Position numbers and translations under genes: made by a program
In this document: positions 3,368 to 34,294 of the stretch, piece after piece
How the letters are laid out: every line of letters starts with the position of its first letter
Numbering within the stretch: position 1 is the first letter of the stretch
NCBI GenBank assembly: GCA_017624275.1
Contig: JAGANG010000048.1
Span: forward strand, 199-64,198
Origin: Spirochaetales bacterium
GTDB lineage: Bacteria; Spirochaetota; GWE2-31-10
Direction: 5' to 3'
DNA length: 64,000 nucleotides
The notes under the pieces: generated by a model
Told to the model about the DNA's origin: nothing
Seen by the model: only the letters and a program-made list of their open reading frames with translations
The model's database searches: none

Positions 3368-6300
3368 TTATTTAATCGTAAAGATTCCGCCGTTTGCACG
3401 CCCGAAAACTTCCGATTCATACATGCATTCTGCATTAACCGGAGGTGTCGGAAAAACTCCCCGTCGCACTGTTCTGAATCTCAATGAAACTACCGAACGC
3501 CCTTTTACAAAATCATCCCAGAAAATATGAGCTTCGTTATCATAAAGTTCTTTTCTTGTCACAAAACGGAATTCTTCATTATTACCGAACGTTGTATCTA
3601 CATCCACAATTTCTGCTCCCGACGGAATAGGCAATCGTAACGCCAAGTAATTTCTGTCAAACGTGGACATTACATTTACTTCCATGCGATAAACTTTATC
3701 AGTTTCCAATTCCGTCACAAACTCATTATCAGTAATTTCTGCTCCGGTAGCATCATCATAAACATTAACATTTATTCCGATTCCTTCATCTCTGGATGAC
3801 TGCATTTCTTCAGGCAATGCATAAGTCAAACTTGCAGAATAAAGTAATGAACCTTTCCCGTTTTTTATAATTTCCAAAGGAAGCTGCTTATCTTTCGCAT
3901 AAGATTTCAATTTTTCTTTATCCATTACAACATTAACAATATCAGCATTGTCTGCATCAAATTTTCCGGCAGCAATTTTTTTACTGTCAAATAGAACTTC
4001 TGCTGATAACTTTTTATTTTCAAGATTATAAATTTTAATAACTTTAGCCACCGCATTCAACACTATCGAAGTAGTAGACAAATCTTTCCAATAGCCGCAT
4101 TTTTGATTTTCAAGTAATGTAAACAACATTTTACCTATCATTTCATCAGATGAATTTACTTTAACAAGCAATTCCAAAGTTCTGGACAATCGACACAATT
4201 TATCAAAACCGGCAATAATTCTTTCATACGGAGAAACAACGTCATTTTCAAATACCGAAATATCTACGCCTCTGGCTGTAGGACGAATATAAGTTTTAAT
4301 ACGTTCCGCACATTTTGCCGCCAGCTGAGCGTCTGAAGTTGTGAGTCCTATAAGTGATAACGCCGTAACAGAAATATCTTCCTTTGAATAAAGTTTATTT
4401 AGAAAATCCTCGTCGGCATTCACTCCCAAGCAAGAAATAACATGACAAATTTCCAGCTTTTCTTCGTCACAAACATCTTTTATTTCTGCCGATTTATTTT
4501 GCAAATACTCAACAAGCATTTTTTTATTAATCGCTAAATCACTTTCCGAATAACCGGCTTCCGACGCCATTGCCCACAACGCACCTATTCGCATTGAAAC
4601 AAAAACATGGGAATCTCGTGATTCTTCCCAATACCCGAAACCTCCGTCGGAATGTTGAAGTTTTGCAAGCTTTTTGAAAAATGCCTTCACCGTTTTTGAC
4701 ACATTGTCAATTTTTTTATCAGAATCAAAATCATTTACTTTGTCACCAAAAAGAACCAACGGCATAATTTTTACACTCTGCTGTTCCAAGCAATCAAACG
4801 GATAATCGGAAATGTATTGCAAAACATCTTTCAAAAGTCCCATTCCTGTCGTACCAAAGGCAACAGACAATCGACTGTCACCATCATCGGCAAAACTCGG
4901 AATTACAACTGCTTCCGTTATGCTTTTTTCTTCATCATTCAGAATTCCTACAGAAGTAACAGTTTCACGAATATATGGCTTTTCTATAATTACCGGACAA
5001 ACTATTCGCTCGTTAATAATATCCGAATGTATTGTAAATACAGCGTCGACAACTCCGGCACGAACAGCTGCCACATCAAAATATACTACCGTATTTGCAC
5101 CAGACGGAACCGTAACCTTATGTTCTTTAATATCTGCATCCACAAAAGCTTCCCCGGCACGCAATGTTTCGCCGGCTTCATTTTTATGAGATTCCGCCCC
5201 TCTCATTTCCAATGCCACTGTAATATCATGAGATACCGAATCAAGATTTGAAATTAATACACCAAGTTCGCTTGTGTCACGTTCTCGCATTCTTCGAGGC
5301 AACACTTCTTGAATATTAACAGGATTTTGTACCGCAATCTCACTTTCTTGAAATGCCAGAAATTCTCCGGCAGCCCCTAACGCAGTAACTCTGTAAGTTG
5401 TCAAAGTATCCGGCAATTTAAATCGACATGTAACTTTTCCGTTTTCATCAGTTTTTAATACAGGTAAAAATACTGCCGTAGGATTAAAATTACGTCGTTC
5501 TTCAATACCGTCTGCCGCACTTTCCATTTTACCGTAATTTGCATCGCCGCCACGCAAAGTTTTTGCTTCATACGTTACCGGATCAAGCAACAAAGAACGA
5601 GAATCGCCGCCTTTTACAAGTAAAGGGAAATTATGATTGGCATAGAAGAAATCAAGCGGATTAGGGACATGATAATTAATCAAATCCAATACACCTCTGT
5701 CGGCAGCCACAAGAGAAAGTTCTGCATTTGCCAACGGTTTTCCGTTCTTTGTAGCTGTCAATGTAATCTCAGCCTCTTCTCCGGGGCGATAAATCGGTTT
5801 TATGCTGTCTACTTTTACGCTAAAAGCTTTTACACGAGGATTTACAAATAATCTTATCGCACCGTAAAAACTTTTCGGCTTATCCAAATCTATTTTCCCG
5901 TACTCGGTTGATGGAGCCCCGTTACGCACTGAATACGATGCCACCGAAACATAAACTACAGGTACATAATTTCGTGCAATAGGAATTTCCAGTACTTGCA
6001 TACTTCTGTCAAAATAACGAACTTCCTCTGTAAAAATACCTTCTCGTTCTACGGTAATAAGATAATGTCCTGCCGGCAACGTACTTTCCAATAAAACTTG
6101 TGCAGTTTCTCCGGGATTGTAAACATCTTTATCCGCAGTCAAACGCAATGATGTCGTATTATCTTGATTCCAAAAAACACGCTCTGTTCCGGTTACAAAG
6201 AAACCTTTTTCGGAAACGGTCTCTCTTCCGGCAAAATCTTTTGCTGTTACCCGCAAGATATAATAACCGGCTTCTTTCGGTGTAACAGAAATCTTTCCTT

Positions 6301-9300
6301 TAGAATTAACCGAAATCTTTTGTTCATTCTGCTGTACAAGATTTTTTTCATAGCGGCTGTAAACATGACCGCCGATTCCCTGCTGTTGTACAATATTCCA
6401 TTCTTCCTTGAATAAAGTCGCAGTCATTGATTTGTTTTTACCTATATGCTGTCCTATTTTGTCACGTTCAATCAAATCTTCTTCAGGACTTACCAACAAA
6501 TATTCAAAAGACAATTTCTGTCCGGATTTAGGAAATCTCGAAATTCCCAATGGTTTAGAAATACCCACATAATATGATGCCGGATGAACCATTATTGATG
6601 ACCATGACGAAATTTTTTGATTACTTACATCTGTAACCATAGTGCTTGTATTGTAATTATAAGAAATTCCTTTTGTCTTATTGCCGGTTGTAGCACAAGA
6701 AAAACGTACTTTTCCCTCATTATCGAGAGTTCCTTCATCAGCCGCAACTTCCGAACTTCCTTCCCCGAAAGATTCCATTCCGAACGAATAATCTTTAAAT
6801 TGAACTTTCTTCGATGTAAAGTTGCAAGGTTCTCGATACCAACTGCTTTGAAATTTCGCATTTGCGGGAACTCCCCCGGCAAGATACGATGCCGAAAGTT
6901 GAGCTTCTATTTTTTCTCCGGCTATAATTGCTTTTTTAGGTAAAGTCACAACCGATTGAAATTTTGCTCGTTCAAAATATGAAACCGTAAAATAAAGAGA
7001 CTCTTCTGTTTTATTATCAGAACGTTTATACAACAAGCTATAAGTCCCCGGTTTGGCATCTTCCGGAATAACAAAACTTCCGTAGAACCCTCCGGATTCA
7101 CTTGTTTTATCAGTTTTTGACTCGTAAGTTATCGGATTTCTCCAATCATTATTTTTTAATACAATCGAATATTCTCCGGAATAAGGAGTAAAATTGCCGA
7201 GTTTTTGATCTCTGTCGATTCCTCTGAATGACAAAGTTTCTCCCGGTTTGTAAATACCTCGATCGGTAAACATAAAAATTCTCGGCTTACTTTGTAATGC
7301 AAATCCGACTGAATCGGAATTGTAAATTCCTACTCGCCAAGGATAATGACTTTCCGGCTTAAAAGTTGCAAAATCACCGTCTTTTTCTGCAGCAATTGCA
7401 AAATTATCTTCGTATCCTACAAAAAGCTTACTGGCATTTTCTGCCGTTATAGGAATTACCGCAAATCCATCCGCAGAAGTTTTTGCACATTCCAAGTATT
7501 TTCCGTCAGCACAGTCTGCCATACTGTTTTCTTTAACATTGTAAATGTAGACATTTGCATTTTCCACCGGCTTGCCTGTAGAAAGTTCCGTTACCAAAAC
7601 AATCGCTTTGTTTATTCCGTAACGCACGGTAATCCCCAAATCTGTCACCTGAATAGTAGAGTAATCTTCATGAGTAAAAAAACCTTCTTTTCGCCATGTT
7701 GAAGCAGTACGCACTGATGTATCTATACGCACTGCCCCCATTCCGTTTGTAAGATACGGAGCCAAATCTACAATTTCAAGCTTTCTCTCATTCCGAGGTA
7801 AAATTGACAACTCTTTATAACCGGACAAAGTTTTCACATCCAAATCTTTTATTTCACCTAAAAGCGGATTATCTGTTTTTCTTATGCTGTATCCGGAATC
7901 AGCTAAAATATTTTGATATTCAAAAACAACTTTTGCTGGGCAATCGGGACGTTTTTCCAACATCTTCGCACCGTACATTCCGAATTTAAATTCACTACGA
8001 GCTTCCGGTACCGTCACTTCGGCAACAGCTTCTTTTTCCAAACGTTGCCCGTAAATATCACAAAGTTGCGGAGAAACATTAATAAAATATTTATCCTTAT
8101 AATTTACCGGGAGTCCGAAAATAATAACTTCATTTTCTGATAATTTTATATTTTCCAAACCTACATTATTTTTCTGACCGTTTGCCAAAGTATAACTGAA
8201 AGCATTTTCCAAAGATTTTGAATCTACCGGATGAGAAAAGCAAATATGTACCGGAAATCGTTCTTTATCCGATGATTCCCCCTCATAAACATAAGTGTAT
8301 TTAAAATTTTGCAATGTAGAATAAGAAACTTCTGTCTTTTTATCACCGTTTCCTACTGCTATTTTAATTTTTGTCTGCGGTGACAGTTCATCTGTTATAT
8401 GATAAGCAATTACGTCAGCTTTTTCTTGCGTCGTTACAAAATTCAGTTTTTTATCTTTGGCCGTAATTGTTGATAATTTCGCTGCTTCTTGTGCATCAAT
8501 GTCATAATTGAATTGTACCAAAACGTCTTTTGCTGCTTCTAGCGGCACATCGTTATTATCAAAACGAACATGATTTTTTTCAGCATATTTCAATCCGGCT
8601 GCAAACCACACTATTTTCAATGCCGCCGCCGCAGTCGTAAAAGTAGTATCTCCTTCAATCGGTTTATCATAAAGAGATTTGATTTGTTTATTTACGGTAA
8701 TTGTATAAAATCCTTGCGGTTCACACGGTTGTGCTGCATCAAAACAAAGCAAAGAAGTTCCCTTCCAGCGAAAAACGCCTTCTATTTGCGGCGTAATACT
8801 GACATACTTTGAAGTTTTTTCAGGTTGATTCAAAGCTTCCAGTGCTACTACAGGTTCTGAAAAAAGCACATAAAACGACGGATTGCGAACTTCCGACGGA
8901 ATAGAACCTTTAGGGCCCCAATCGCAAACAGTAAACGGAGCCGCCGCTTGTTTTTTAGATAATTTAATCTGAGTGTTTTCTGCTCTGTCGGACTTTTCTG
9001 ATTTTTTCCCGGTTTTATAATTTGTTTTGTACATATTCAATTTTCGCAATCCGGGAATTATTGAAGTAACTTTTTCTGAAGATGAAATATTTTTTAGATT
9101 CACACGGTATGCTTCAATTTGTTTTTCCGGTTCACACGGCGTGTAATCCGGTATAAAAAAATCCTGAGAGGAAATAAAATTATTTTCAAATTCCGTATTA
9201 ATATTTTTTGCATCACTACTTATTTGCGACGGCACTGATTTGCTTACATCTTTAGCAGAATCTTTTTTATTACACGAAATCATACCTACACAAATTAACA

Positions 9301-9337
9301 ACACAATCGTAATTTTTGCCATTATTCTCTTATTCAT
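3368..9337 (-). CDS. Alpha-2-macroglobulin family lipoprotein with an intact thioester motif
   Basis: The ORF runs to 9379. I place the start at ATG 9337, where GGAGG lies 6 nt upstream (MNKRIMAKITIVLLICVGMISC, lipobox MISC). Thioester CLEQ is encoded at 4781-4792 within YPFDCLEQQ. The size (about 1990 aa) and pairing with pbpC fit the ECAM/YfhM class. Confidence 0.88.
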   Translation of the reverse strand: MNKRIMAKITIVLLICVGMISCNKKDSAKDVSKSVPSQISSDAKNINTEFENNFISSQDFFIPDYTPCEPEKQIEAYRVNLKNISSSEKVTSIIPGLRKLNMYKTNYKTGKKSEKSDRAENTQIKLSKKQAAAPFTVCDWGPKGSIPSEVRNPSFYVLFSEPVVALEALNQPEKTSKYVSITPQIEGVFRWKGTSLLCFDAAQPCEPQGFYTITVNKQIKSLYDKPIEGDTTFTTAAAALKIVWFAAGLKYAEKNHVRFDNNDVPLEAAKDVLVQFNYDIDAQEAAKLSTITAKDKKLNFVTTQEKADVIAYHITDELSPQTKIKIAVGNGDKKTEVSYSTLQNFKYTYVYEGESSDKERFPVHICFSHPVDSKSLENAFSYTLANGQKNNVGLENIKLSENEVIIFGLPVNYKDKYFINVSPQLCDIYGQRLEKEAVAEVTVPEARSEFKFGMYGAKMLEKRPDCPAKVVFEYQNILADSGYSIRKTDNPLLGEIKDLDVKTLSGYKELSILPRNERKLEIVDLAPYLTNGMGAVRIDTSVRTASTWRKEGFFTHEDYSTIQVTDLGITVRYGINKAIVLVTELSTGKPVENANVYIYNVKENSMADCADGKYLECAKTSADGFAVIPITAENASKLFVGYEDNFAIAAEKDGDFATFKPESHYPWRVGIYNSDSVGFALQSKPRIFMFTDRGIYKPGETLSFRGIDRDQKLGNFTPYSGEYSIVLKNNDWRNPITYESKTDKTSESGGFYGSFVIPEDAKPGTYSLLYKRSDNKTEESLYFTVSYFERAKFQSVVTLPKKAIIAGEKIEAQLSASYLAGGVPANAKFQSSWYREPCNFTSKKVQFKDYSFGMESFGEGSSEVAADEGTLDNEGKVRFSCATTGNKTKGISYNYNTSTMVTDVSNQKISSWSSIMVHPASYYVGISKPLGISRFPKSGQKLSFEYLLVSPEEDLIERDKIGQHIGKNKSMTATLFKEEWNIVQQQGIGGHVYSRYEKNLVQQNEQKISVNSKGKISVTPKEAGYYILRVTAKDFAGRETVSEKGFFVTGTERVFWNQDNTTSLRLTADKDVYNPGETAQVLLESTLPAGHYLITVEREGIFTEEVRYFDRSMQVLEIPIARNYVPVVYVSVASYSVRNGAPSTEYGKIDLDKPKSFYGAIRLFVNPRVKAFSVKVDSIKPIYRPGEEAEITLTATKNGKPLANAELSLVAADRGVLDLINYHVPNPLDFFYANHNFPLLVKGGDSRSLLLDPVTYEAKTLRGGDANYGKMESAADGIEERRNFNPTAVFLPVLKTDENGKVTCRFKLPDTLTTYRVTALGAAGEFLAFQESEIAVQNPVNIQEVLPRRMRERDTSELGVLISNLDSVSHDITVALEMRGAESHKNEAGETLRAGEAFVDADIKEHKVTVPSGANTVVYFDVAAVRAGVVDAVFTIHSDIINERIVCPVIIEKPYIRETVTSVGILNDEEKSITEAVVIPSFADDGDSRLSVAFGTTGMGLLKDVLQYISDYPFDCLEQQSVKIMPLVLFGDKVNDFDSDKKIDNVSKTVKAFFKKLAKLQHSDGGFGYWEESRDSHVFVSMRIGALWAMASEAGYSESDLAINKKMLVEYLQNKSAEIKDVCDEEKLEICHVISCLGVNADEDFLNKLYSKEDISVTALSLIGLTTSDAQLAAKCAERIKTYIRPTARGVDISVFENDVVSPYERIIAGFDKLCRLSRTLELLVKVNSSDEMIGKMLFTLLENQKCGYWKDLSTTSIVLNAVAKVIKIYNLENKKLSAEVLFDSKKIAAGKFDADNADIVNVVMDKEKLKSYAKDKQLPLEIIKNGKGSLLYSASLTYALPEEMQSSRDEGIGINVNVYDDATGAEITDNEFVTELETDKVYRMEVNVMSTFDRNYLALRLPIPSGAEIVDVDTTFGNNEEFRFVTRKELYDNEAHIFWDDFVKGRSVVSLRFRTVRRGVFPTPPVNAECMYESEVFGRANGGIFTIK

Positions 9338-9357
9338 TTGTGTCCTCCTACAAAAAA

Positions 9358-10485
9358 TTATACTTCCAAATCTTCCCACAAAAGTCCCGCTCCGGCAGTT
9401 ACATCTACTGCCAATTTTCTTCCCGGAATTTCTTTAAAATATTCCGGTGAAATCCCCGGCGTAAGAACTTTTTCAGTTCGTAATACAGCAATATCTTTAG
9501 CTCGTAATTTTGTTCCGGCTTTTAATGATTTTAAATAATGAATTGAACGATTCGTTCTGTTGTAATTTGCCTTTTCCGAAGCTGCTAATTTTTTTTGACC
9601 GTCACCTAATATCGCATTCACTTTTTCTGTACCGAATTCTTTCATTAGATAAGATAAACGTTCTTCTTCCGCAAGTAAATCCACAGAATGAACTATTTTT
9701 ACCATTTGTGCAAATTGTTTCGGATTAAGTGCTACCGGATCGTCAAGTCCGTCAGTTTCCCGGCTCAACGTAATGTGTTTTTCTATAATCTTTCCCCCAG
9801 CTGCAACCGTAATCGCCGGTACAAGTTCCGGATCCAAAGAATGATCGCTTACACCTACTGATATAGAAAAACGTTCCTTTAAGAATTTCAGAACAGCTAA
9901 ATTGTAATCTGTTTCCGGAGCCGGGTAACTTGTCACGCAATGCAATAGTGAAACTAAGGGCAATTCTTTATCTGCACACGCTGCGTATAATAACGGATTT
10001 AAGAACTTTAAAGTTTTATCGATATCTTCTAACTTTGATACTCCGGACGATAAAATTACCGGTATTTGTGCATTCTCATAATATGTGTTTTGCAATCGCA
10101 AAAGTTCTTCTAACATCGGAAAATGATTTAATTCCGGTGATGCAATTTTTATGGCATCCGGACGTAGCTTCCACAATTCTCGCAAACTGCGAATCCCAAA
10201 CGGCGAACAAGCAAATGCAACGCCTTTACTGCGTGCATACCGACAAACCTTTTTAAAAAATGAAGCGGGAACTTCCAGTGCCAAAAATCTATCATACAAT
10301 CGAATAGATCCTCCCGGTAAATTCACCATCCCTGTATCCGGATGAAGAATTTCATCAGCATAAACCCATTGAAATTTTACACAATCAGCACCGGCAAAAA
10401 CTGCGGCATCTATAAGTTGATATGCTTTTTCAAGTGAACCTCCGTGAGAAGTTCCTATTTCAGCAATAATATATGTTCTGTCCAT
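9358..10485 (-). CDS. NeuB-family nonulosonic/sialic-acid synthase-like protein with C-terminal SAF domain
   Basis: N-terminus MDRTYIIAEIGTSHGGSLEKAYQLIDAAVFAGADCVKFQ matches the NeuB/SpsE signature. A C-terminal SAF-like segment is present. Start chosen at ATG 10485 (GGGAGG 7 nt upstream) rather than ORF start 10500. Confidence 0.75.
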   Translation of the reverse strand: MDRTYIIAEIGTSHGGSLEKAYQLIDAAVFAGADCVKFQWVYADEILHPDTGMVNLPGGSIRLYDRFLALEVPASFFKKVCRYARSKGVAFACSPFGIRSLRELWKLRPDAIKIASPELNHFPMLEELLRLQNTYYENAQIPVILSSGVSKLEDIDKTLKFLNPLLYAACADKELPLVSLLHCVTSYPAPETDYNLAVLKFLKERFSISVGVSDHSLDPELVPAITVAAGGKIIEKHITLSRETDGLDDPVALNPKQFAQMVKIVHSVDLLAEEERLSYLMKEFGTEKVNAILGDGQKKLAASEKANYNRTNRSIHYLKSLKAGTKLRAKDIAVLRTEKVLTPGISPEYFKEIPGRKLAVDVTAGAGLLWEDLEV

Positions 10486-26252: not shown

Positions 26253-26459
26253 GATTAACATTCCTATACTAACGACACATATTCAGACATGCCCAAAATT
26301 TATATTTCTATGCGAATTGATTTTTTTATGTTCCGAGTAATTTAAAAAGAAAATTATTGAGGATTAAAACGCAGTAAAAAATCGTTCGATTTATACGGTT
26401 TTATTCATTGAATGTCAATCTTTTGATTAGAATAAGAATTAAAGATATTTTGTTGATTA

Positions 26460-26909
26460 TCAACCGATCCAGCTGTACAAATCACGCTTATAAACAATCA
26501 ATTCTTCTGCTGAGAAAAAATTATTTATTTCACGTTCTGCACTTTCCGGAGAGTCTGAAGTATGAACCACATTACTTGCAATGTGAATTACATAATCTCC
26601 GCGAATTGTACCGGGAGCAGCCTCTTCTACCTTTGTCGCACCTGCCAATTTTCTGGCTATACGAATAGCATTTTCTGCTTCCAACACAAGCACTACACAC
26701 GGTGAAGAAATAATAAAATCCACTAATTCATTAAAAAAAGGTTTGTCTTTATGCTCTGCATAATGATATTCAGCTTTCTCTTTAGAAATCATAATCATTT
26801 TCATTGCAATAAATTTCAAACCTTTTTTTTCAAAACGTGAAAGAATCTCTCCTGTGATACCTCGCTGAATACAATCCGGTTTTAAAATTACAAGAGTTCT
26901 TTCATGCAT
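26460..26909 (-). CDS. ndk: Nucleoside diphosphate kinase
   Basis: 149 aa. ERTLVILKPD, the active-site His in NVVHTSDS, and GTIRGDY. Confidence 0.93.
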   Translation of the reverse strand: MHERTLVILKPDCIQRGITGEILSRFEKKGLKFIAMKMIMISKEKAEYHYAEHKDKPFFNELVDFIISSPCVVLVLEAENAIRIARKLAGATKVEEAAPGTIRGDYVIHIASNVVHTSDSPESAEREINNFFSAEELIVYKRDLYSWIG

Positions 26910-26911
26910 AA

Positions 26912-27184
26912 TTATAGACCGTATTTTGCTTTAATTTCAGCTTCAGCTTCTAACCAGTCAGTTAAGCTATTGCCTTCTTTACCGCTTCTTTGTCTTTCTT
27001 CAAACAAAGCATAAGATCTCTTTTCTACTTCAGCAATAAAATCTTCTTTAGAAATTGTAACTGCGGCAGCTGCTGCTTTTTTTGTAGTTGTTTTTCTAGT
27101 TGTTGTCTTTTTTACTGTTTCTGTAGTTGCTTCTTTTTTAACATCTTCAGTAGATGCTGTTTCAGCTGTTTTTCTCTTAGCCAT
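26912..27184 (-). CDS. Small Lys/Thr-rich protein with a DUF2934-like C-terminal motif
   Basis: 90 aa. The C-terminal SLTDWLEAEAEIKAKY resembles the DUF2934 signature. AAGGAG RBS. The stop lies 2 nt before the ndk start. Confidence 0.55.
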   Translation of the reverse strand: MAKRKTAETASTEDVKKEATTETVKKTTTRKTTTKKAAAAAVTISKEDFIAEVEKRSYALFEERQRSGKEGNSLTDWLEAEAEIKAKYGL

Positions 27185-27320
27185 AAAAAAACACTCCTTT
27201 TTACTTATTCTTTTTTACTGTGGTATTTTACCATTTTTTTAAATGGACAATTTTCAGATACTTATACTTAAAATAAAAATAAATTGCAAATATTTCTTAA
27301 TATAACTACACAATAAAAAA

Positions 27321-28322
27321 TTAATATCCGATACTTATAAGTATTTTCCCGAAAGATTTTTCTTCTTTGGAAGATTTTTCGAAAATCCAACGACAAAATT
27401 GTCTTCGAATATCTTCATCCCACTCCGAATTCCCGGAACTTTTTACTATATTTGCATTTCTTATGTACCCATCGGAATCTACATTAAAATTAATTTCTAT
27501 TACAAATTTAAATCCAGCTTCTTTTACTTCCTGCGGAACTTCGATTGCATCAGAATAAAGCAAACCTCTTGCTCCTCCATTGCTCCACTCAATATCTTTT
27601 CCCTTATTGGATTCATTATCATTATTATTTTTGCTTCCTTCATTTCCCACACCGTTACCGTCATTGTCTTTTCCCGGCGTAGAATTATCAGCAAATAAAA
27701 CATCATCAAAATTAAAATCCGGCAAACTTTCCTGCGATTGCTGAGAATCCTCAAAAAAGTCTTCTTCCAACTGGTGTTTAGTTTCTTTTTGTAATTGTTC
27801 AAATTTATCAAAAATATCCACCTCTTCCGTAACTACCGGTACATTTTCCACAGGTTCAACTTGTTCTTTGATTTGGACATTTTCTTGTTTTTCTTTAATT
27901 TCTTCTTTTGGTAAATCCGGCTGTTTTGCTGCAACATTTGGCTTTTGTGTTTTTTCTACTGTTTTAGTTTTTTTCACATTTACTGATTTAGAAACATTTG
28001 TCGCTTTAGGTTTAAAATCAGATTTCTTCTTATTCACCGATTTCTGAGGAATATTTTTTTTCACCGGAGTAATTTGTTTCTTTGCCGGAGCAGACTCCTT
28101 TTTCATTGATGCATCTTTTTTGTTTCCCGATTTTTCTTGCGAAACACTAAGCTGATCTTGCACTAATCTGACAGTCATTACTCTGTCTTCCGGTTTTGAA
28201 ACATCCGGTTTAAAATATGAAATTCCAAAGATAAAAAAGAAATGCAAAAGAATTGATAAAAAGATTGCCCAGCCTAAGCGTCTTTCTTGTGACTTAACTT
28301 CTCTGTCATTCACCGTATTCAT
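27321..28322 (-). CDS. TonB-like energy transducer
   Basis: N-terminal anchor LGWAIFLSILLHFFFIFGISYF, a long Lys/Pro/Glu-rich linker, and a C-terminal TonB_C-like fold of about 80 aa. Its start overlaps the exbD stop. Confidence 0.7.
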   Translation of the reverse strand: MNTVNDREVKSQERRLGWAIFLSILLHFFFIFGISYFKPDVSKPEDRVMTVRLVQDQLSVSQEKSGNKKDASMKKESAPAKKQITPVKKNIPQKSVNKKKSDFKPKATNVSKSVNVKKTKTVEKTQKPNVAAKQPDLPKEEIKEKQENVQIKEQVEPVENVPVVTEEVDIFDKFEQLQKETKHQLEEDFFEDSQQSQESLPDFNFDDVLFADNSTPGKDNDGNGVGNEGSKNNNDNESNKGKDIEWSNGGARGLLYSDAIEVPQEVKEAGFKFVIEINFNVDSDGYIRNANIVKSSGNSEWDEDIRRQFCRWIFEKSSKEEKSFGKILISIGY

Positions 28323-28735
28323 TACCGCTTCCTGTCTAATGCCAAATCAATACTGTCATAGCCATGTTCTTTTAAAATATCCATAATATTAATGAGTAAT
28401 TCATATTCTATGCTTTTATTTCCATACAAAATAACAGACTTTCTGTCATTACCTCCGGTTACAGCGGATTCCGATAAAATAGCAGAAAAATTTGTCAAAT
28501 TCGTTTTTTGGGTTCCTACCATAATAGAATTTTTATTAACGACAGTTATTTTCAATGGAGTTTCGGCTATTTTTGATAAATTCTCTGCTTTCGGTAACTC
28601 AAATTCCATTCCCGTCGTTATTTTAACTTGCGTTGCTAACATAAAAAATATGATTAACTGGAAAACAATATCAATCATCGGAGCCATATCAAGCACAACT
28701 TTTGTTTTCAGTCTTCTGTTAAATTTTACAGCCAT
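28322..28735 (-). CDS. exbD: ExbD/TolR-family biopolymer transport protein
   Basis: 137 aa. MAPMIDIVFQLIIFFM with the conserved Asp in the single TM segment. Confidence 0.85.
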   Translation of the reverse strand: MAVKFNRRLKTKVVLDMAPMIDIVFQLIIFFMLATQVKITTGMEFELPKAENLSKIAETPLKITVVNKNSIMVGTQKTNLTNFSAILSESAVTGGNDRKSVILYGNKSIEYELLINIMDILKEHGYDSIDLALDRKR

Positions 28736-28736
28736 A

Positions 28737-29366
28737 TCAGCCTCTTTTTTCCTGTTTTATTAACATTTGAATAAGATTATTTGCCTGAATTTCCAGTTTC
28801 AAAATCATATTATTAACCTTGTTTGTGTAATGATTATAAACAACCGTTGACGGTATCGCCACAACCAACCCAAACGCAGTCGTTAATAACGCCTTAGAAA
28901 TTCCTTGTGCCAACTGTTCCATATTTCCCAAAGACGCTCCGGCTCCGATAACTCCGAATGTTTCCATATTTCCCATTACTGTACCTAAAAGCCCCAACAA
29001 CGGAGCAATACTTGCAATAGAACCTAATGTAGTAAGAAATTTTTCCAACTTAGGAATCTCCAAACTTGCAGCATCTTTTATTGCATCTTGAATTCTGGCT
29101 TCATCTTCCTTTCGATGTTTTATTCCTGCTTTTACTAAATTTGTTACCGGAGACGGTTTAGAATCACAAATCGCAAGTACTTCTTCATAGTGATTCATAG
29201 ATATCGCCTTGGCAATTCTATCTAAAAGTTTATCTGTACCTAAATTAATCTTTTTATAATAAAAGAATCGTTCCAGCGTAATCGCCAATGCAATAATCGA
29301 ACAGATAAAAATAGCAGACATTATAAAAGGTCCGCCATCCATAAATAACTTTATAATTCCTTTCAT
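28737..29366 (-). CDS. exbB: MotA/TolQ/ExbB-family proton channel
   Basis: 209 aa with three TM segments. APLLGLLGTVMGNMETF is the ExbB/TolQ signature. Confidence 0.88.
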   Translation of the reverse strand: MKGIIKLFMDGGPFIMSAIFICSIIALAITLERFFYYKKINLGTDKLLDRIAKAISMNHYEEVLAICDSKPSPVTNLVKAGIKHRKEDEARIQDAIKDAASLEIPKLEKFLTTLGSIASIAPLLGLLGTVMGNMETFGVIGAGASLGNMEQLAQGISKALLTTAFGLVVAIPSTVVYNHYTNKVNNMILKLEIQANNLIQMLIKQEKRG

Positions 29367-29430
29367 GTTACCCCCAAATAGACTACATACGACAAGAAAA
29401 TCATCGTCACAATATCAAAATGTCTAAGCA

Positions 29431-29474
29431 AAAAATAAAAAAACCCTTTAATAGAAATCTTATCTATTAAAGGG
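29431..29474 (-). terminator. Rho-independent terminator of the hyperacidic-protein gene
   Basis: On the minus strand, an 11-bp stem CCCTTTAATAG/CTATTAAAGGG with a 9-nt loop is followed by TTTTTTTATTTTT. Confidence 0.8.
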
Positions 29475-29495
29475 CTAACTTGAAATCAACAAAAA

Positions 29496-29837
29496 TTATT
29501 CATCTTCATCATAATCATTATAATCTAATTCGTCGTCTTCGTAATCATCTTCATCATCGTCGAATTCGTCATAATCTTCATCGTCTTCATCATAATCATC
29601 ATAGTCTTCGTCGTCATAATCTTCATCATCATAATCATCGAAGTCATCATCATAATCATCATCATCAAAGTCGTCATCAAAGTCGTCGTCTTCGTCATAA
29701 TCTTCGTCGTCTTCATCATAATCATCGCTGTCATCGTAGTCATCATCAAAATCGTCTTCTCCGTCATCGTCATCATCGTACGCAACAGCAAAAAGAGTAT
29801 TTTTTTCTAATAATTCTTCTTCTTCTACATAAAACAT
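29496..29837 (-). CDS. Hyperacidic Asp/Glu-rich protein with periodic Tyr/Phe (no known family)
   Basis: 113 aa. GGGAGGG lies 8 nt upstream of the ATG, and a strong terminator lies directly downstream. In residues 21-113, 72 of 93 are D/E and 17 are Y/F. Only one basic residue (K12). No signal peptide. Confidence 0.7.
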   Translation of the reverse strand: MFYVEEEELLEKNTLFAVAYDDDDDGEDDFDDDYDDSDDYDEDDEDYDEDDDFDDDFDDDDYDDDFDDYDDEDYDDEDYDDYDEDDEDYDEFDDDEDDYEDDELDYNDYDEDE

Positions 29838-29937
29838 AATAAGGTCCCTCCCTTAGTGTCTCTAAAATTTTCATAGACATAGAACATAAAGCAAATATTC
29901 TTGTCAAGATATTTTTTATGAATTAATGCTATACATC

Positions 29938-30603
29938 CTATGAAAAAATACTGTTTAAAATAGAACTGCAATCTTTCTTGAAATAATCCACAAAATTTTG
30001 AGATGCAGTAAACACGGGGATCTCATATTCTTCCGTTAAAATTTGAGGCAAAGGCCAGCAGTCTTTAGCCATTACGCACCAAATAACAAGCATCTTTACG
30101 TTCTTTTCAATAAAATCAGCCAGTCTTACCGGTTCTTTTAATTGCAAATCTTTCATGAACGACAAAAAACCTACCGGTTTTTCACGATAATAATATTTAC
30201 TGTTAATTTTATCGTTTCCTAAGTAAAACTTAAGTAATTGATTTCTAAGTTTATTACCAAAGCTATTTTTTTTGTATTTACCACTTAAAAGTGTTCCGTA
30301 AAAATCCGGTTCAATAAAAAAAACACCTTTTATTTTTTCTGAAAACCGTTTTACCAACTCACCGGCAATGTAAGAAAAAACTCCGAATGAAACAATATAA
30401 ACCGGCTCTTTTTCATTTATTATAATTTGCGATATATTCAAAACAAATTCATCATAAGTTGTGTCTTTAGAATAATCTAAAAAAATCGGATTATACTGAA
30501 TACTTCCAAAAAGACTGTAAACAACTTCATTACTAAAAATTCGGTTAAAAGGGAAGAAAGGAGAGACAATAACACTGACAGGTTTATTATTTTCCAAATT
30601 CAC
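29938..30603 (-). CDS. Hypothetical protein, possibly a degenerate alpha/beta-hydrolase fold
   Basis: 221 aa. GTG start with GGGAGG 6 nt upstream. The strand/helix pattern resembles a small alpha/beta hydrolase (PVSVIVSPFF..., EPVYIVSFGVFSYIAGELV), but I see no GxSxG and no catalytic His. Confidence 0.45.
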   Translation of the reverse strand: MNLENNKPVSVIVSPFFPFNRIFSNEVVYSLFGSIQYNPIFLDYSKDTTYDEFVLNISQIIINEKEPVYIVSFGVFSYIAGELVKRFSEKIKGVFFIEPDFYGTLLSGKYKKNSFGNKLRNQLLKFYLGNDKINSKYYYREKPVGFLSFMKDLQLKEPVRLADFIEKNVKMLVIWCVMAKDCWPLPQILTEEYEIPVFTASQNFVDYFKKDCSSILNSIFS

Positions 30604-30647
30604 TTTTTACCTCCCGATAGCTTTTCTATAAAATCTTAGAATTTTAA

Positions 30648-32006
30648 TTAATTCGTACTATTAAGCAACGCTTCTATTGCTACTTTATTAATTTTTCCCA
30701 TTTCGTTTTTGGGAATTTTTGTTTGAAAAATTTTCTTAGGAACTGCATAACCAGGTAAAATCTTTCTCAAGTCTCTGCTAATTTGATTTATATCCAATAT
30801 ATTATCAAACTCAACTAAAATATAAATAGATTCGTCCTGGCATCCCACAAAAACTTCATTTTCATTTAAGTCAATTCCAAATGAATCTTTTAAATAAGTT
30901 CTAAAATTAGCAGAAACGAATCCCAAATCAACTCTTTTTCCATGTATTTTCACAAAGCGAGTATTACGTCCCAATAAAACAAAATGTTTATCATCAGTAA
31001 ACTTTACAACATCACCGGTACAATAACCAATATCTTTATCATATTCGACAGAAATCGCAGGAGATGAAATAAAAAGTTCCAATTCTTGTTCCGGGTCATA
31101 ATTTTTTATTGTTACGTAATCAATCAAACAATAATTGGGATTTTCTGCAAATACTCGATATGCCATCCCTCCGGTCTCTGTAGAACCGTAAATCTCATGA
31201 ATCTTAATACCTTTTTCTAAAAACTTTTGAGAAATCTCTCCCGGTAAAGGCCCGGAAGAACTAAAAGCACCTTTTAATTTAGAAAAACTATCTATTAAAT
31301 CCAACTTATCAAATAATGAATAATAAGACGGTACCGAAACGAGATAATCAATATTTGACTTTGCAACATAATCAGCTATTGATTCCGGTGTGAAAAAAGA
31401 ATTCAAATCAATCACTGCTGAAGCAAAAATAGGTAACATCGTAAAAAGAAAACCATAAATATGATAAATCGGCGGTATACAAAAAAATACATCTTCGCTT
31501 TTCAGCGAAAACAATCTGTGAAGTTCCGCCAACTCGGTTAATATATTGGAATTCCATTTGCCAATATTTTTAGATTTTCCCGTAGAACCGGACGTAAAAA
31601 AATACAAATCATAAGTATTTTCAAAACTCTTAACTTTATCCGGACAAAAATTCTCGCCCGGAATTAAAGAAAAATCTTCATTCAAAAAAATACCATCCGG
31701 GCAATGTTTATTGTCACTGATATAAATTATACCCGGCTCAAAGAAAATTTGAGGTTGAATTTCAATAGGAACTAAAACCGTTACCAGGTTCAATTTCTTC
31801 ATTGTAAAAAATAAAATTAAAAAAGAAAACCTATCCTTTATATCAATATAAACTCGCTTGTTATCAATATCTTTTAGCAAATTACAAAAATTCTTTTCCA
31901 ATAAAGATATTTTTTTATCTATATCACTTTTTGTATAGCAAGAATCTTTATATAAAAAGGAAACATTTTGCGAATCACTGTAAATCGAATACAAAGAATT
32001 TTTCAT
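30648..32006 (-). CDS. AMP-dependent synthetase/ligase (short, about 450-aa adenylate-forming enzyme; probable acyl/aryl-ACP ligase)
   Basis: Adenylation core motifs FFTSGSTGKSKNIG, YGSTETGG, TGDVV, GRNTRFVKIHGKRVDL and EMGKINK. Its ATG overlaps the upstream stop (ATGA). Confidence 0.85.
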   Translation of the reverse strand: MKNSLYSIYSDSQNVSFLYKDSCYTKSDIDKKISLLEKNFCNLLKDIDNKRVYIDIKDRFSFLILFFTMKKLNLVTVLVPIEIQPQIFFEPGIIYISDNKHCPDGIFLNEDFSLIPGENFCPDKVKSFENTYDLYFFTSGSTGKSKNIGKWNSNILTELAELHRLFSLKSEDVFFCIPPIYHIYGFLFTMLPIFASAVIDLNSFFTPESIADYVAKSNIDYLVSVPSYYSLFDKLDLIDSFSKLKGAFSSSGPLPGEISQKFLEKGIKIHEIYGSTETGGMAYRVFAENPNYCLIDYVTIKNYDPEQELELFISSPAISVEYDKDIGYCTGDVVKFTDDKHFVLLGRNTRFVKIHGKRVDLGFVSANFRTYLKDSFGIDLNENEVFVGCQDESIYILVEFDNILDINQISRDLRKILPGYAVPKKIFQTKIPKNEMGKINKVAIEALLNSTN

Positions 32007-32890
32007 AAGACAACCTCAAATAGGAAATATTTCCCTTTAAAATGTCCTATCACAGCAGTCTTTCCATGAAGACTTAAAATAAAAGGAAGTGCCAACCGTG
32101 TTATTATTGAAATCGGTGCATCGCCGACTATCGGATAATCAGTCAGCAATTCTGCATTTACTTTATCTTTTAGTTCTATAAAAGACTCTTTATCTGCAAA
32201 TACGTATTCATAATCACACAAGAAGCTTTTTATTTGCTCCCATGAACAATTTTCATGCTTTAGAAAAAATCCTTTTTGTTCATCAACATTCTTTTGAATT
32301 TTATAAGAAACAAAACTTGGATAAAGTTGATATTTGTATTTTACTTCCAAATCATAAAATGAAGAATACTCATCTCCGGCAACAATTACAAATTCCGGAT
32401 TAATTCTTACTAAGAATTTTATTAAATCTACAAAAGATTTTCCCGTATTTATTCCGTCAGACACTGCTAAACAATAATTATGATATTTATTAATTATTGT
32501 GTAATATCCTAAAGGTGTATTATGTACTGAATTATGAAATAAAACAGGACTTACTAATTTACTTTGATTCAATTCTAAATCTGCAATAATTTTATTCGAT
32601 GTATCAATCTCAGCAAAAGATGTGAATAAATAAATTTCGTCATCTTCCCTAAGATTTTTTGCACCTCCGTTTTGAAGTGCTTGATACACACCTAAAGACA
32701 ACTGACTCATTCGTCGTTTCAAAGGTGATTTTATATTATCAGACAATCCGGGAATCTCTTGTGATAAATTCTCTGGTAATTTCACATCAGAAAAAAGACC
32801 ATTGCTATACATTTCTCTTAATGAATCTAAAGATGAAACATTGGAATTTATGAAATGAATATCTCTAATGTAAGTAAATTCTTGTTCCAT
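32003..32890 (-). CDS. Ketosynthase N-terminal-like partner protein (chain-length-factor-like, PF13723-type)
   Basis: 295 aa. KRRMSQLSLGVYQAL and FHNSVHNTPLGYYTI resemble the KS-like partner proteins of aryl-polyene-type clusters. No Cys-His-His triad. Translationally coupled on both sides. Confidence 0.6.
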   Translation of the reverse strand: MEQEFTYIRDIHFINSNVSSLDSLREMYSNGLFSDVKLPENLSQEIPGLSDNIKSPLKRRMSQLSLGVYQALQNGGAKNLREDDEIYLFTSFAEIDTSNKIIADLELNQSKLVSPVLFHNSVHNTPLGYYTIINKYHNYCLAVSDGINTGKSFVDLIKFLVRINPEFVIVAGDEYSSFYDLEVKYKYQLYPSFVSYKIQKNVDEQKGFFLKHENCSWEQIKSFLCDYEYVFADKESFIELKDKVNAELLTDYPIVGDAPISIITRLALPFILSLHGKTAVIGHFKGKYFLFEVVL

Positions 32891-34059
32891 TATGCGTCTT
32901 TCTCTCCGGAATTATCATCTAAATTTGTTTTTATCAATACAGAAACATTGTTTCCGCCGAATCCAAAAGAATTCTTTAAGAAATATCTTATATTTTCCGC
33001 TTTTACTGTTTTTAACGGAATTAAAGGACTGATAGGATCAGAAAAATCTGTCGGCTGATAAATAAAACCGCTTCTTAACATATCAATACAAATTGCAATT
33101 TCTGCAATTGTCGATGCCCCTAATGTATGACCGACATATGACTTTAATGAAGTTACAAGAGTTTTCTTGCTGAAAATATCTTCCAATACAGACAATTCTA
33201 CTTGGTCATTCATTTTTGTCCCGGTACCATGAGCATTTACATATCCCACATCATCGGAACAAACTCCTGCTTCATCTAATGCACTATAAATACATTTTCT
33301 TTGATTTGCTCCGGAAGGATCCGGAGAAGTAATATGATGTCCGTCAACTCCGGAAGCAACACCGGCTATTTCAAAATCATTAGGTGTTCGGGATTTATTC
33401 TCTAAAATAAGAATTCCGGCTCCCTCTCCCAGCGTAAGACCGTCTCTCTGCTCTGTTAAAGGACGTGAAGCTTTATCTGACACCAATTGTAACGAATCAA
33501 AACCAATCAACGTTGTTTTTGAAATTATATCAATCCCTAGTAAAATCGCATAATCAATTACTCCGGCACGAATTAAGCGTGCTGCTTGATAAATTGCGTG
33601 TCCTGAAGAAGAACATGCGGTTGAAAAAGTAAAAATCTCACCGATTTTTCCTTCCGGATATCTCTTTTTTACATCCGTACTGGTTTTATTGAAAAAATGG
33701 TTTTCAAACACAGAATAAGAAGATTTTTTATTAATCAAATCAATATAATTACACTCAGTTTCTCTTATTCCGCCTGTCGATGACGATAAAAAGACCGGGA
33801 TATTTTCATGCGAATCGATAAAGTCTTTGCACTTATCTAGAAGAGAAAAAATAATAGCAGACGATCTGACTTGATTCCCATATTCTTTAAAAGAATTCGA
33901 AATCTCATAATAAGGCTTACTAAAATTAAAAACTTTTTCGTCTGTTCTCGGTTCTGGTTTATTCTGGCTTAAAGACTGTAAAATTTCATCTGTAGTAATA
34001 CCAAGGGAGCTTGCACTCCCATGGTACGTAATAAACACTCTATTTTTTTGCATTTTCAT
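32890..34059 (-). CDS. Beta-ketoacyl-ACP synthase (FabF/FabB-like, divergent)
   Basis: 389 aa. Active-site Cys in FSTACSSSGHA, and His residues in NAHGTGT and VGHTLGAS. The C-terminus carries NSFGFGGNN. Confidence 0.88.
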   Translation of the reverse strand: MKMQKNRVFITYHGSASSLGITTDEILQSLSQNKPEPRTDEKVFNFSKPYYEISNSFKEYGNQVRSSAIIFSLLDKCKDFIDSHENIPVFLSSSTGGIRETECNYIDLINKKSSYSVFENHFFNKTSTDVKKRYPEGKIGEIFTFSTACSSSGHAIYQAARLIRAGVIDYAILLGIDIISKTTLIGFDSLQLVSDKASRPLTEQRDGLTLGEGAGILILENKSRTPNDFEIAGVASGVDGHHITSPDPSGANQRKCIYSALDEAGVCSDDVGYVNAHGTGTKMNDQVELSVLEDIFSKKTLVTSLKSYVGHTLGASTIAEIAICIDMLRSGFIYQPTDFSDPISPLIPLKTVKAENIRYFLKNSFGFGGNNVSVLIKTNLDDNSGEKDA

Positions 34060-34294
34060 TTACAAAATCGTAGAAAATTTTAAATGAATCCAGTTTATTT
34101 TGATTCAAATCTTTATCTTTTATTTTAATTCCGAATTTCTTTTCGATTTCTACAATTAATTCCAAAACATCAATTGAATCGAAAAATAATCCGTCCTCTC
34201 CGATTAAAACTGTATCATCTGTAATTGAACTGATATCATCATCACTTTTTGCTACAGTTAAAATCACTTTTTTTAATTCATCTTTATCAACCAT
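34040..34294 (-). CDS. Dedicated acyl carrier protein
   Basis: 84 aa. Phosphopantetheine site DSIDVLEL. GGAGG RBS. Its 3' end overlaps the KS start by 20 nt. It begins 24 nt after the secG stop. Confidence 0.8.
   Translation of the reverse strand: MVDKDELKKVILTVAKSDDDISSITDDTVLIGEDGLFFDSIDVLELIVEIEKKFGIKIKDKDLNQNKLDSFKIFYDFVNENAKK

Follow-up and report, generated by a model that had tools for sequence, protein, structure and literature searches.

A conserved hyperacidic protein with regularly spaced aromatic residues, encoded next to a lipid module in gut spirochaetes

The acidic gene and its product

We have analyzed a stretch of 64,000 nucleotides (nt) from a Spirochaetales bacterium (assembly GCA_017624275.1, contig JAGANG010000048.1, positions 199 to 64,198), referred to here as the window, and within it a small gene on the minus strand (29496-29837) that codes for a protein of 113 amino acids (aa), 68% of them acidic. 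This open reading frame (ORF) had been picked out in a first-pass annotation, made from the letters alone, as a monocistronic gene for a hyperacidic protein with evenly spaced Tyr and Phe. The gene and the elements around it are the following:

29902-29907, minus strand: -35 box TTGACA, invariant in five species.
29879-29884, minus strand: -10 box TTCTAT, 17-nt spacer from the -35 box; a weak match to the consensus, conserved.
29838-29870, minus strand: 5' untranslated region (UTR) of ~33 nt including the ribosome-binding site (RBS) GGGAGGG (29846-29852); nearly invariant in five species.
29778-29837, minus strand: non-repetitive head, codons 1-20, MFYVEEEELLEKNTLFAVAY; pattern MFYVEDEdLLEKNtL.A..Y in the alignment of orthologues.
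29499-29777, minus strand: polyanionic tail, codons 21-113, with a bulky residue every 2-7 positions and acidic runs of at most 6.
29565-29600, minus strand: second copy of a 36-nt duplication (peptide DDYDEDDEDYDE); the first copy is at 29691-29726 (35/36 nt).
29499-29537, minus strand: C-terminal motif DDELDYNDYDEDE; family pattern in the orthologue alignment LD[YF][ND][DN][YF][DN]E[DE]E followed by the stop.
29496-29498, minus strand: stop codon TAA, read from the sequence.
29432-29476, minus strand: intrinsic terminator, a 14-pair stem with a 7-nt loop and then TTTTTATTTT; kept in five species.
29400-29427, minus strand: promoter-like element of exbB, after the terminator (TTAGAC, 16 nt, GATGAT; GATAAT in relatives).

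A recount bore out the extreme composition. The tail (residues 21-113) is made of 58 Asp, 14 Glu, 12 Tyr, 5 Phe and one each of Gly, Ser, Leu and Asn, i.e., 72 acidic and 17 aromatic residues out of 93, and the whole protein has one Lys and no Arg, His, Pro, Cys, Trp, Gln or Ile at all. With 77 carboxylates per 113 residues and Asp greatly exceeding Glu, the computed mass is 13,987 Da and the net charge about -76 at pH 7. The regular spacing of Tyr and Phe also stood up to analysis: the coefficient of variation of the gaps between bulky residues was lower in the window protein than in all 20,000 random placements, and the same random-placement test gave P≤0.001 in the six full-length orthologues, without exception. 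The longest uninterrupted acidic run was of 5-8 residues across the orthologues tested, and not longer than 6 in the window protein. The peptide DDYDEDDEDYDE appears twice in the tail, as already noticed, although the DNA duplication behind it measures 36 nt (29691-29726 and 29565-29600, 35 of 36 identical) and not the 33 or so first given. Repeat analysis of the tract detected only degenerate low complexity and periodicities, the longest run of a same codon being 4, and a clean tandem repeat array was consequently rejected. The use of GAC (38% in the acidic gene vs 28% in the other genes) was not significantly biased (P=0.10).

The N-terminus, MFYVEEEELLEK, has a net negative charge and its longest hydrophobic stretch, as read from the sequence, is of 6 residues. 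No classical export signal was seen in it, as judged by reading the sequence without a dedicated predictor, and with this acidic N-terminus the protein would lack a signal peptide, as the first-pass annotation had proposed. We also considered the head as an amphipathic membrane-binding helix and rejected it, its hydrophobic moment being 0.03-0.2 with no helix predicted.

Expression signals and transcription

The strong RBS, which ends 8 nt before the ATG, and the perfect TTGACA box lie exactly where they had been reported (29846-29852 and 29902-29907). The TTCTAT -10 box matches the consensus at 3 of 6 positions and was missed by a generic promoter scan; it is invariant in five species, and the orthologue L150 has TTGACG, 17 nt and TATAAT at the matching position. 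Promoter, 33-nt 5' UTR and RBS are almost invariant in five species, far above the flanks. At the other end the gene does have its own terminator, with a longer stem than the 11 bp first described (29442-29476, 14 pairs counting G-U, followed by TTTTTATTTT). A-U/G-U/G-C exchanges preserve this hairpin in five species; in L011 and L012 its position is taken by different hairpins, also with a T-run. Just beyond, the exbB-side element stands out in the alignment of relatives as the conserved block TTGTGACGATAATTTT, which marks the next transcription unit; the block (29400-29427) is probably the promoter or operator of exbB.

Public metatranscriptomes contain transcripts of this size. A gut metatranscriptome (X2) gave a 397-nt contig over 29474-29870, which begins at the predicted start and stops at the base of the terminator, with a depth of 12.1 that was the highest within 26300-31700. 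Similarly, a bovine one (X9) gave a contig of 357 nt (29501-29857) with a depth of 11.2 and both flanks at 0. The 5' ends of both contigs (29870 and 29857) are located just downstream of the -10 box, and we have placed the likely transcription start from the promoter geometry and the end of the X2 contig. In a third metatranscriptome (X4) one contig continues past the terminator into exbB. The contigs are strandless, and word depth is a poor measure of expression that can be inflated in low-complexity DNA; what they show is transcription, in agreement with a monocistronic unit, with the strand left unproven. Together with the conserved signals and the selection described below, these contigs matching the predicted transcript uphold the monocistronic minus-strand gene. 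The acidic gene is independently transcribed and well expressed, contig depth being a weak measure of the level.

Conservation, selection and choice of strand

The exact protein was found on contigs in 366 public assembly-index blocks, always with identical gene order, and came from gut, faecal and named bovine, sheep and goat gut metagenomes. It is the gene of a ruminant-gut spirochaete, and the related genomes are uncultured Spirochaetota or Spirochaetales metagenome-assembled genomes. Relatives could be found only by synteny and by DNA patterns. In this way we found nine related Spirochaetota lineages with the gene at the same position, seven complete and two partial. Five species-level relatives (L007-L011), reached through the neighbouring ExbB (94-70% identical), all have there an ORF of 113-123 aa; with the window gene included, five of the six species keep to 113-116 aa, the sixth having 123 aa. 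L007-L011 share the head MFYVEDEdLLEKNtL.A..Y, a similar tail and a C-terminus ...DDLDYND[YF]DEDE. A further lineage is split over two contigs of one sample with the break inside the repeat, L150 holding the head (MYHLESEDDFFKDSYLLLAS, the contig ending with the head MYHLESEDDFFKDSYLLLASDDDFDD...) and L012 the tail, which ends in ELDFDNFDDE; that of another relative, L018, ends in DLDDFDEDE.

In the alignment of orthologues the best-conserved parts are the head and the last dozen or so residues, while the middle drifts. Tyr and Phe swap freely, and the distant L011 has a (DDDDF)n tail almost free of Tyr, indicating that what is selected is a bulky aromatic side chain and not the hydroxyl of Tyr. 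For the same reason the ideas that the tyrosines are modified in a matrix protein or act as metal ligands, the former raised in the first-pass annotation, are not supported. Between species dN (non-synonymous substitutions per site) was 0.07-0.09 with synonymous sites saturated, and dN/dS, the ratio to the synonymous value, was about 0.04-0.06 where computable, a figure subject to the uncertain alignment of the repetitive tail. Head, tail and C-terminal motif are all under purifying selection, the tail being selected for charge density and for Tyr or Phe (occasionally Leu) every 2-7 residues rather than for an exact sequence.

The opposite strand has also to be considered, since a His/Arg-rich frame (29480-29839, plus strand) is open there over 119 codons, and the expressed product might be this one or the region be non-coding. 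Such an antisense frame was picked by a public gene caller in L018. However, GAT, GAC and GAA are free of stops in that antisense register, so the frame is open only as a by-product of composition, and it contains 2 stops in each of L010 and L011. Promoter, RBS, ATG, stop and terminator are all on the minus strand and conserved, and the substitutions are synonymous in the minus-strand frame, which had been the choice from the beginning. We give the plus-strand or non-coding alternative a negligible probability.

The family is systematically under-annotated. In L018 (1149-1640, minus strand) the public annotation is the antisense His/Arg/Asn-rich frame of 163 aa and not the acidic one, and short-read assemblies often break or leave N gaps within the acidic gene (L012, L148).

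Genomic neighbourhood

In the window the order is tpiA, secG, acyl carrier protein (ACP), ketosynthase (KS), a second ketosynthase of the chain-length-factor type (CLF-like, PF13723), AMP-binding adenylase, a 221-aa protein and the acidic gene; beyond it, with the acidic ORF 130 nt upstream of exbB, come exbB, exbD, a TonB-like gene, a DUF2934-like basic protein, ndk and a DEAD-box helicase. The position between the lipid module and ExbBD-TonB, pointed out in the first-pass annotation, is conserved. The acidic gene comes directly after the hydrolase-like gene (that of the 221-aa protein) in every lineage found, or within about 2.5 kb in the rearranged L018, and in most lineages it is also just before exbB-exbD-tonB-like.

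The most informative case is the divergent lineage L087/L089/L052/L069, in which the KS is 51%, the adenylase 43% and the 221-aa protein 31% identical to those of the window. Here the series tpiA-secG-ACP-KS-CLF-adenylase-hydrolase-acidic gene is kept, followed by a convergent gene judged purA-like from the N-terminal sequence alone, and exbB was not found within 4.3 kb in L087/L089. ExbB homologues 59-67% identical had no adjacent acidic gene and no acidic ORF within the 5-6 kb flanks examined. The context in L087/L089/L052/L069 indicates that the most deeply conserved neighbour is the lipid module, the adjacency to ExbBD-TonB being lineage-specific, and the special link to ExbBD that had seemed suggestive at first is not sustained. 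L018 had pointed in the opposite direction, since there the acidic tail precedes exbB and the lipid genes follow tonB in inverted orientation, as if the acidic gene travelled with ExbB. Given that no start codon is present in its acidic ORF and that only a truncated form of its TonB-like gene exists, the contig is rearranged or misassembled, and this candidate, to which L087/L089 run contrary, was rejected. A role as counter-ion for the TonB-like neighbour, which has a Lys-rich linker after a single predicted membrane helix, does not fit either: judging by TonB topology the linker is likely periplasmic, and the acidic protein has no recognizable export signal.

The 221-aa protein (29938-30603, minus strand) is clade-specific, has no family match and always precedes the acidic gene. 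Its structural model (predicted local distance difference test score, pLDDT, 64; predicted template modelling score, pTM, 0.67) gave no matches other than weak ones to alpha/beta hydrolases (E about 2e-3). It has an invariant Ser72 at the nucleophile-elbow position and no invariant His in six homologues, and may be a non-canonical or non-catalytic protein with the hydrolase fold. The lipid/polyketide-like module itself (30648-34294, minus strand, after tpiA-secG) is compact, with ACP (34040-34294), FabF-like KS, CLF-like KS (PF13723) and AMP-binding adenylase but no reductase or dehydratase genes, and is conserved across deeply diverged spirochaete lineages. On the other side, a 90-aa protein (26912-27184, minus strand) is conserved as well between the TonB-like gene and ndk; its N-terminal half is basic and Lys/Thr-rich, a ...LTDWLEAEAEIKAKYGL motif lies at its C-terminus, and DUF2934 is faintly flagged in its L012 homologue. 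Elsewhere the window is ordinary chromosome, with an alpha-2-macroglobulin/PBP1c pair, neuB, leuA, c-di-GMP enzymes and transporters. The bacterial alpha-2-macroglobulin (2003 aa; 1178-9379, minus strand) adjoins a PBP1c-type transglycosylase/transpeptidase, a known periplasmic defence/repair pair.

Searches for known families and structure

The first-pass annotation knew of no family like this one, and the searches gave the same answer. The profile search of Pfam-A and NCBIfam gave zero families at E≤0.01; a word-indexed phmmer-type search of 5.8 billion proteins gave zero hits at E≤0.001 among 8,000 candidates; exhaustive phmmer over 1.84 billion representatives found nothing; PDB sequences gave zero matches at E≤10; and neither PHROGs nor PADLOC provided a phage- or defence-family match. 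These HMMER searches are nearly blind to a protein of this kind because of their composition correction. The exact protein was absent from the clustered protein collection, no described family resembling it was found in the literature, and Rfam and tRNA scans of the window gave only a tRNA-Asn, far from the acidic gene. AlphaFold2 from the single sequence returned a pLDDT of 58, a pTM of 0.12 and zero secondary structure, which for a single-sequence model is weak negative evidence; the protein is predicted to be disordered.

Several known kinds of acidic protein were looked for specifically. The model shows no folded, B-DNA-like carboxylate surface as in Ocr or ArdA. No mobile-element location was found either, the gene lying in a syntenic chromosomal core region with the same order in at least seven lineages. 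The HARE-HTH domain (PF05066) of the RNA polymerase delta subunit (RpoE) is missing, there being no Pfam match and just 20 residues before the tail. An MgtL-like leader does not agree with 113 codons followed by a conserved terminator and the exbB promoter-like element. The export signal expected of secreted acidic Ca2+-binding or matrix proteins is not apparent, and no enzyme for ribosomally synthesized and post-translationally modified peptides (RiPPs), or dedicated exporter, was present among the neighbours within 6 kb.

We propose to recognize the family by (a) a head ending hydrophobic-x-x-[YF/L]-DDD, (b) a Pro-free tail, 90 aa or longer and at least 65% Asp/Glu, in which bulky residues recur every 2-9 positions, (c) a C-terminus LD[YF]x[DN][YF] and (d) a location directly after the hydrolase-like gene that closes the ACP-KS-CLF-adenylase module. 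All four features are present in the window gene and in L007-L011, and also in L150 plus L012 across the two contig halves. L087/L089 have (a), (b) and (d) with a related C-terminus, and L018 has (b) and (c) but no start codon. This family, of spirochaetal proteins with a head and a poly(Asp-aromatic) tail that follow a lipid module, appears to be undescribed.

Stability of the tract length

Such a tract could act as a contingency locus, expanding and contracting by slippage or recombination and so tuning or switching the gene between strains; length variation by slippage had indeed been thought plausible. The 36-nt internal duplication, the short-read assemblies that often break inside the gene (L012, L148) and the L087/L089/L052/L069 lineage favour this possibility. 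In the latter the ORFs (L087, 6148-6516, plus strand; L089, 4344-4841, minus strand; L052; L069) measure 122, 165, 144 and 165 aa from the first start codon, or about 15 aa less if begun at MESK; their heads and ends are identical, and what distinguishes them is the in-frame repeat blocks, the pattern matches being spaced by 66 nt. These differences may be true polymorphism or assembly collapse. The window species, in contrast, shows one length. Twenty-four contigs with an identical ExbB were read, of which 3 were shown at 113 aa and 20 grouped as similar; the 21 gap-free ones among those shown or grouped all gave 113 aa, with E42D as the single variant. Every 31-mer sampled from 29400-29950 (100% of the words) was present in 12 DNA runs, which come from five or more studies. 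L148, which looked like a length variant, was rejected since it has a scaffold gap of 100 N. With no sign of slippage in the window species, same-codon runs of at most 4 and 113-116 aa in five species, we consider a contingency locus very improbable.

A wider class of head plus poly-Asp proteins

A DNA pattern for DDDDFDDDDFDDD scanned over metagenomes gave at least 120 contig matches (L026-L145). Among the 120 matches listed, 37 were complete small proteins (at most 180 aa, at least 45% Asp/Glu) in which a poly-Asp/Phe tail comes after a head of 16-67 residues that is not acidic, for example L125 (11109-11498, minus strand), L071 (7087-7464, minus strand), L113 (194-457, minus strand) and L138 (4588-4812, plus strand). 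Roughly 20 different heads are represented among the 37, from loci with a GC content of 27-69%. Several heads end hydrophobic-x-x-[YF]-DDD, like the window protein, and several tails end LD[YF]x[DN]F (L113, L082, L030/L110, L117). From such sequences, homology and convergence are inseparable at this low complexity. The neighbours of the look-alikes examined in other lineages showed no common theme, and most were without a Pfam match. The architecture of a head plus poly-Asp/Phe is recurrent and apparently undescribed.

In an AT-rich lineage the next gene (L071, 6529-7047; L125, 10588-11079; both minus strand) codes for a protein with a very basic Lys/Asn-rich N-terminus (MAEKNNNKFAKDNYNKFYKKKNKEQFYKKKNNHNK...) and without meaningful Pfam match, and the product of the third gene has an N-terminus that resembles ArgJ, by its sequence only. 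The acidic and basic genes of L071/L125 could form a polyanion/polycation pair.

On viral contigs the motif appears as an acidic segment of larger proteins, usually C-terminal. In L019 (5859-6506, plus strand) and L021 phage proteins of ~215-227 aa are Glu/Pro-rich and then have (DDDDF)n/(DDDEY)n C-tails ending DDDEWDDGDDE or DDDDEWGDDD, i.e., viruses too use acidic-aromatic tails.

Known systems of similar nature

Polyanionic disordered proteins are already known as a kind; it is the family that appears to be new. The closest functional likeness, by analogy, would be to the acidic tail of the delta subunit or to the acidic tracts of eukaryotic chaperones. The C-terminal domain of Firmicute RNA polymerase delta (RpoE) is a disordered Asp/Glu polyanion with a short targeting part, and acts as an electrostatic competitor of nucleic acids. 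However, delta has a folded N-terminal domain of ~90 residues (HARE-HTH), whereas the acidic protein has a 20-residue head, apparently unstructured and without Pfam match, and the neighbours of its gene belong to lipids and the envelope, not to transcription. Prothymosin-alpha, nucleoplasmin, FACT/Spt16 and ANP32 combine extreme negative charge and disorder with aromatic anchors inside acidic runs that contact basic partners, but they belong to a different domain of life and have no sequence relationship with the window protein, the charge density of which exceeds that of prothymosin-alpha (about 50% Asp/Glu).

Phage T7 Ocr, plasmid ArdA and Neisseria DMP12/DMP19 are small and very acidic decoys for DNA-binding proteins. 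These DNA mimics are folded, with ~25-35% acidic residues that copy B-DNA, and are borne by mobile elements, in contrast to a protein 68% acidic and predicted as disordered, whose gene is chromosomal, syntenic and without a PHROGs or PADLOC match. The anti-restriction role offered in the first-pass annotation is for this reason disfavoured. MgtL-type leaders and destabilization sequences likewise contain hazardous Asp/Glu runs, countered by the preceding chain and by bulky residues, but they are very short regulatory ORFs that exploit abortion, whereas the acidic gene has 113 codons and is apparently built to avoid it. Asprich, Aspein, AGARP and the tail of calsequestrin have similar Asp content and disorder. 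One of them, the coral acid-rich protein AGARP, is reported to be strongly sensitive to counter-ions (PMC12557392). All of these are secreted or lumenal and eukaryotic, as opposed to a bacterial protein with no evident signal peptide. The tip of SSB (DDDIPF) and the C-tails of phage ssDNA-binding proteins consist of an acidic run ending in an aromatic residue that docks in basic/hydrophobic pockets; the acidic protein has ~17 internal copies of the motif, lacks an OB fold (oligonucleotide/oligosaccharide-binding) and ends in DEDE instead of Phe.

Possible function

We tentatively propose, as something possible rather than probable, that the product is a docked polyanion with an electrostatic tail, working in the lipid/envelope arena and patterned so that the tract can be translated. 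The protein would remain in the cytoplasm because no export signal is seen. Its two conserved ends, the head and the C-terminal motif, would anchor it on one specific partner. Because the synteny is deep, the neighbouring lipid/envelope module is the most likely arena, and the partner would most plausibly be one of the components or products of this module, located on the inner side of the membrane. The tail would be purely electrostatic, a protein-encoded analogue of polyphosphate, nucleic acid or the acidic surfaces of carrier proteins, and may shield basic surfaces or compete for them, besides binding polyamines, Mg2+ or Ca2+. The periodic aromatics and the non-acidic head may have a second role in keeping the nascent chain bulky in the exit tunnel, which would allow ~90 acidic codons to be read without abortion by intrinsic ribosome destabilization. 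Acidic runs destabilize translating ribosomes, especially with Pro and near the N-terminus, and this is counteracted by ~30 residues in the tunnel and by bulky residues near the peptidyl-transferase centre (bioRxiv 10.1101/2021.02.02.429294). The protein fits these rules, with no Pro, acidic runs of at most 8, and F2 and Y3 near the start of the chain.

Several points weigh against this proposal. The head, with its moment of 0.03-0.2, does not form a convincing amphipathic helix, and AlphaFold2 sees no structure in it. Since the gene has its own promoter and terminator, the adjacency to the lipid module could be inherited gene order. The look-alike hyperacidic proteins sit elsewhere in unrelated neighbourhoods, and if they are homologous the lipid link is not general. 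The translatability argument is carried over by analogy from experiments in E. coli. Besides, the contigs give no strand information and their depth, perhaps inflated by low complexity, reflects expression poorly. A polyanion role of some sort, as the first-pass annotation suggested, still seems the most sensible reading.

The protein could also work with no specific partner, as a bulk buffer or store of cations, i.e., an abundant soluble polycarboxylate that takes up Mg2+, Ca2+, K+ or polyamines within the cytoplasm, and this we regard as unlikely but worth serious attention. It would account for the 77 carboxylates in 113 residues with Asp far above Glu, for the strong promoter and RBS with transcript contigs among the deepest of the region and for the recurrence of the architecture in many lineages regardless of neighbours, and acid-rich disordered proteins are reported to be strongly sensitive to counter-ion valency (PMC12557392). 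However, a buffer needs neither a conserved head and C-terminal motif nor a fixed genomic position, and free Ca2+ in the cytoplasm is very low. The ion capacity per molecule is also small compared with ribosomes, nucleic acids or polyphosphate. Somewhat less likely still is a mimic of nucleic acids, in which the tail would resemble the phosphate backbone and the aromatics the bases, so as to occupy DNA- or RNA-binding proteins (RNA polymerase, nucleoid proteins, SSB partners, ribosomal proteins), much like the acidic C-terminal domain of Firmicute delta or the DNA mimics. This idea agrees with the charge density and the disorder, DDD[FY] units resemble the SSB tip DDDIPF, the same pattern scan found DDDDF-type acidic-aromatic tails on phage and DnaK-like proteins, and a DEAD-box helicase and the DUF2934-like basic protein are nearby. 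Against it, no gene for a nucleic-acid-binding partner is consistently adjacent, the conserved neighbours being lipid/envelope genes instead, and neither a folded DNA-shaped surface like that of Ocr/ArdA in the model nor a family match was found.

A location in the envelope appears improbable. The protein would have to reach it by non-classical export, or be acylated by the ACP/KS/adenylase/hydrolase module, and serve there a Ca2+ or matrix function or as counter-ion of the TonB linker. The deep synteny with a lipid module whose last gene is alpha/beta hydrolase- or acyltransferase-like and the presumably periplasmic Lys-rich linker of the neighbouring TonB-like protein are compatible with this, and secreted Asp-rich proteins are classic Ca2+ binders. 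But the acidic N-terminus shows no sign of a Sec, Tat or lipoprotein signal, there is no dedicated transporter gene, Tyr is replaceable by Phe, and the head has no Cys or conserved Ser/Thr/Lys acceptor except K12, kept in the close orthologues and not in L011. Finally, translation of the acidic ORF might act only in cis, as a leader that senses, for example, Mg2+ or Asp-tRNA by way of ribosome destabilization and controls read-through into exbB-exbD-tonB. The start of exbB is indeed 130 nt downstream, one metatranscriptome contig crosses the terminator, and acidic nascent chains abort translation in a Mg2+-sensitive manner in MgtL-type leaders (bioRxiv 10.1101/2021.02.02.429294). But 113 codons is far above known leaders; the full-length dN/dS is about 0.05, and the peptide motif at the C-terminus is conserved; beyond the strong terminator, exbB has a conserved promoter-like element of its own; and the L087/L089 lineage has no downstream exbB. 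The context of L089 largely refutes the leader, which we find hardly credible.

Significance

Returning to the docked polyanion, we can extend it into a more doubtful generalization. The window gene may be one of a large unannotated class of bacterial microproteins, each with a short lineage-specific head and then a poly-Asp stretch of 50-130 residues that a bulky residue interrupts every 4-6 positions. The heads would deliver these polyanions, genetically encoded counterparts of polyphosphate or teichoic acid, to different partners, the Asp4-Phe/Tyr pattern would have evolved to permit translation of acidic runs that could not be translated otherwise, and the partner here would be the adjacent lipid module.

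Whatever its function, the protein is an extreme natural polyanion. Its gene is conserved and expressed and evolves under strong purifying selection, but annotation by hidden Markov models (HMMs) does not see the product. The protein offers a natural test case of how ribosomes cope with long acidic nascent chains. If it were only an ion buffer it would be a curiosity; if a partner is found, it would mean that polyanions made on ribosomes serve bacteria as acidic disordered chaperones serve eukaryotes.

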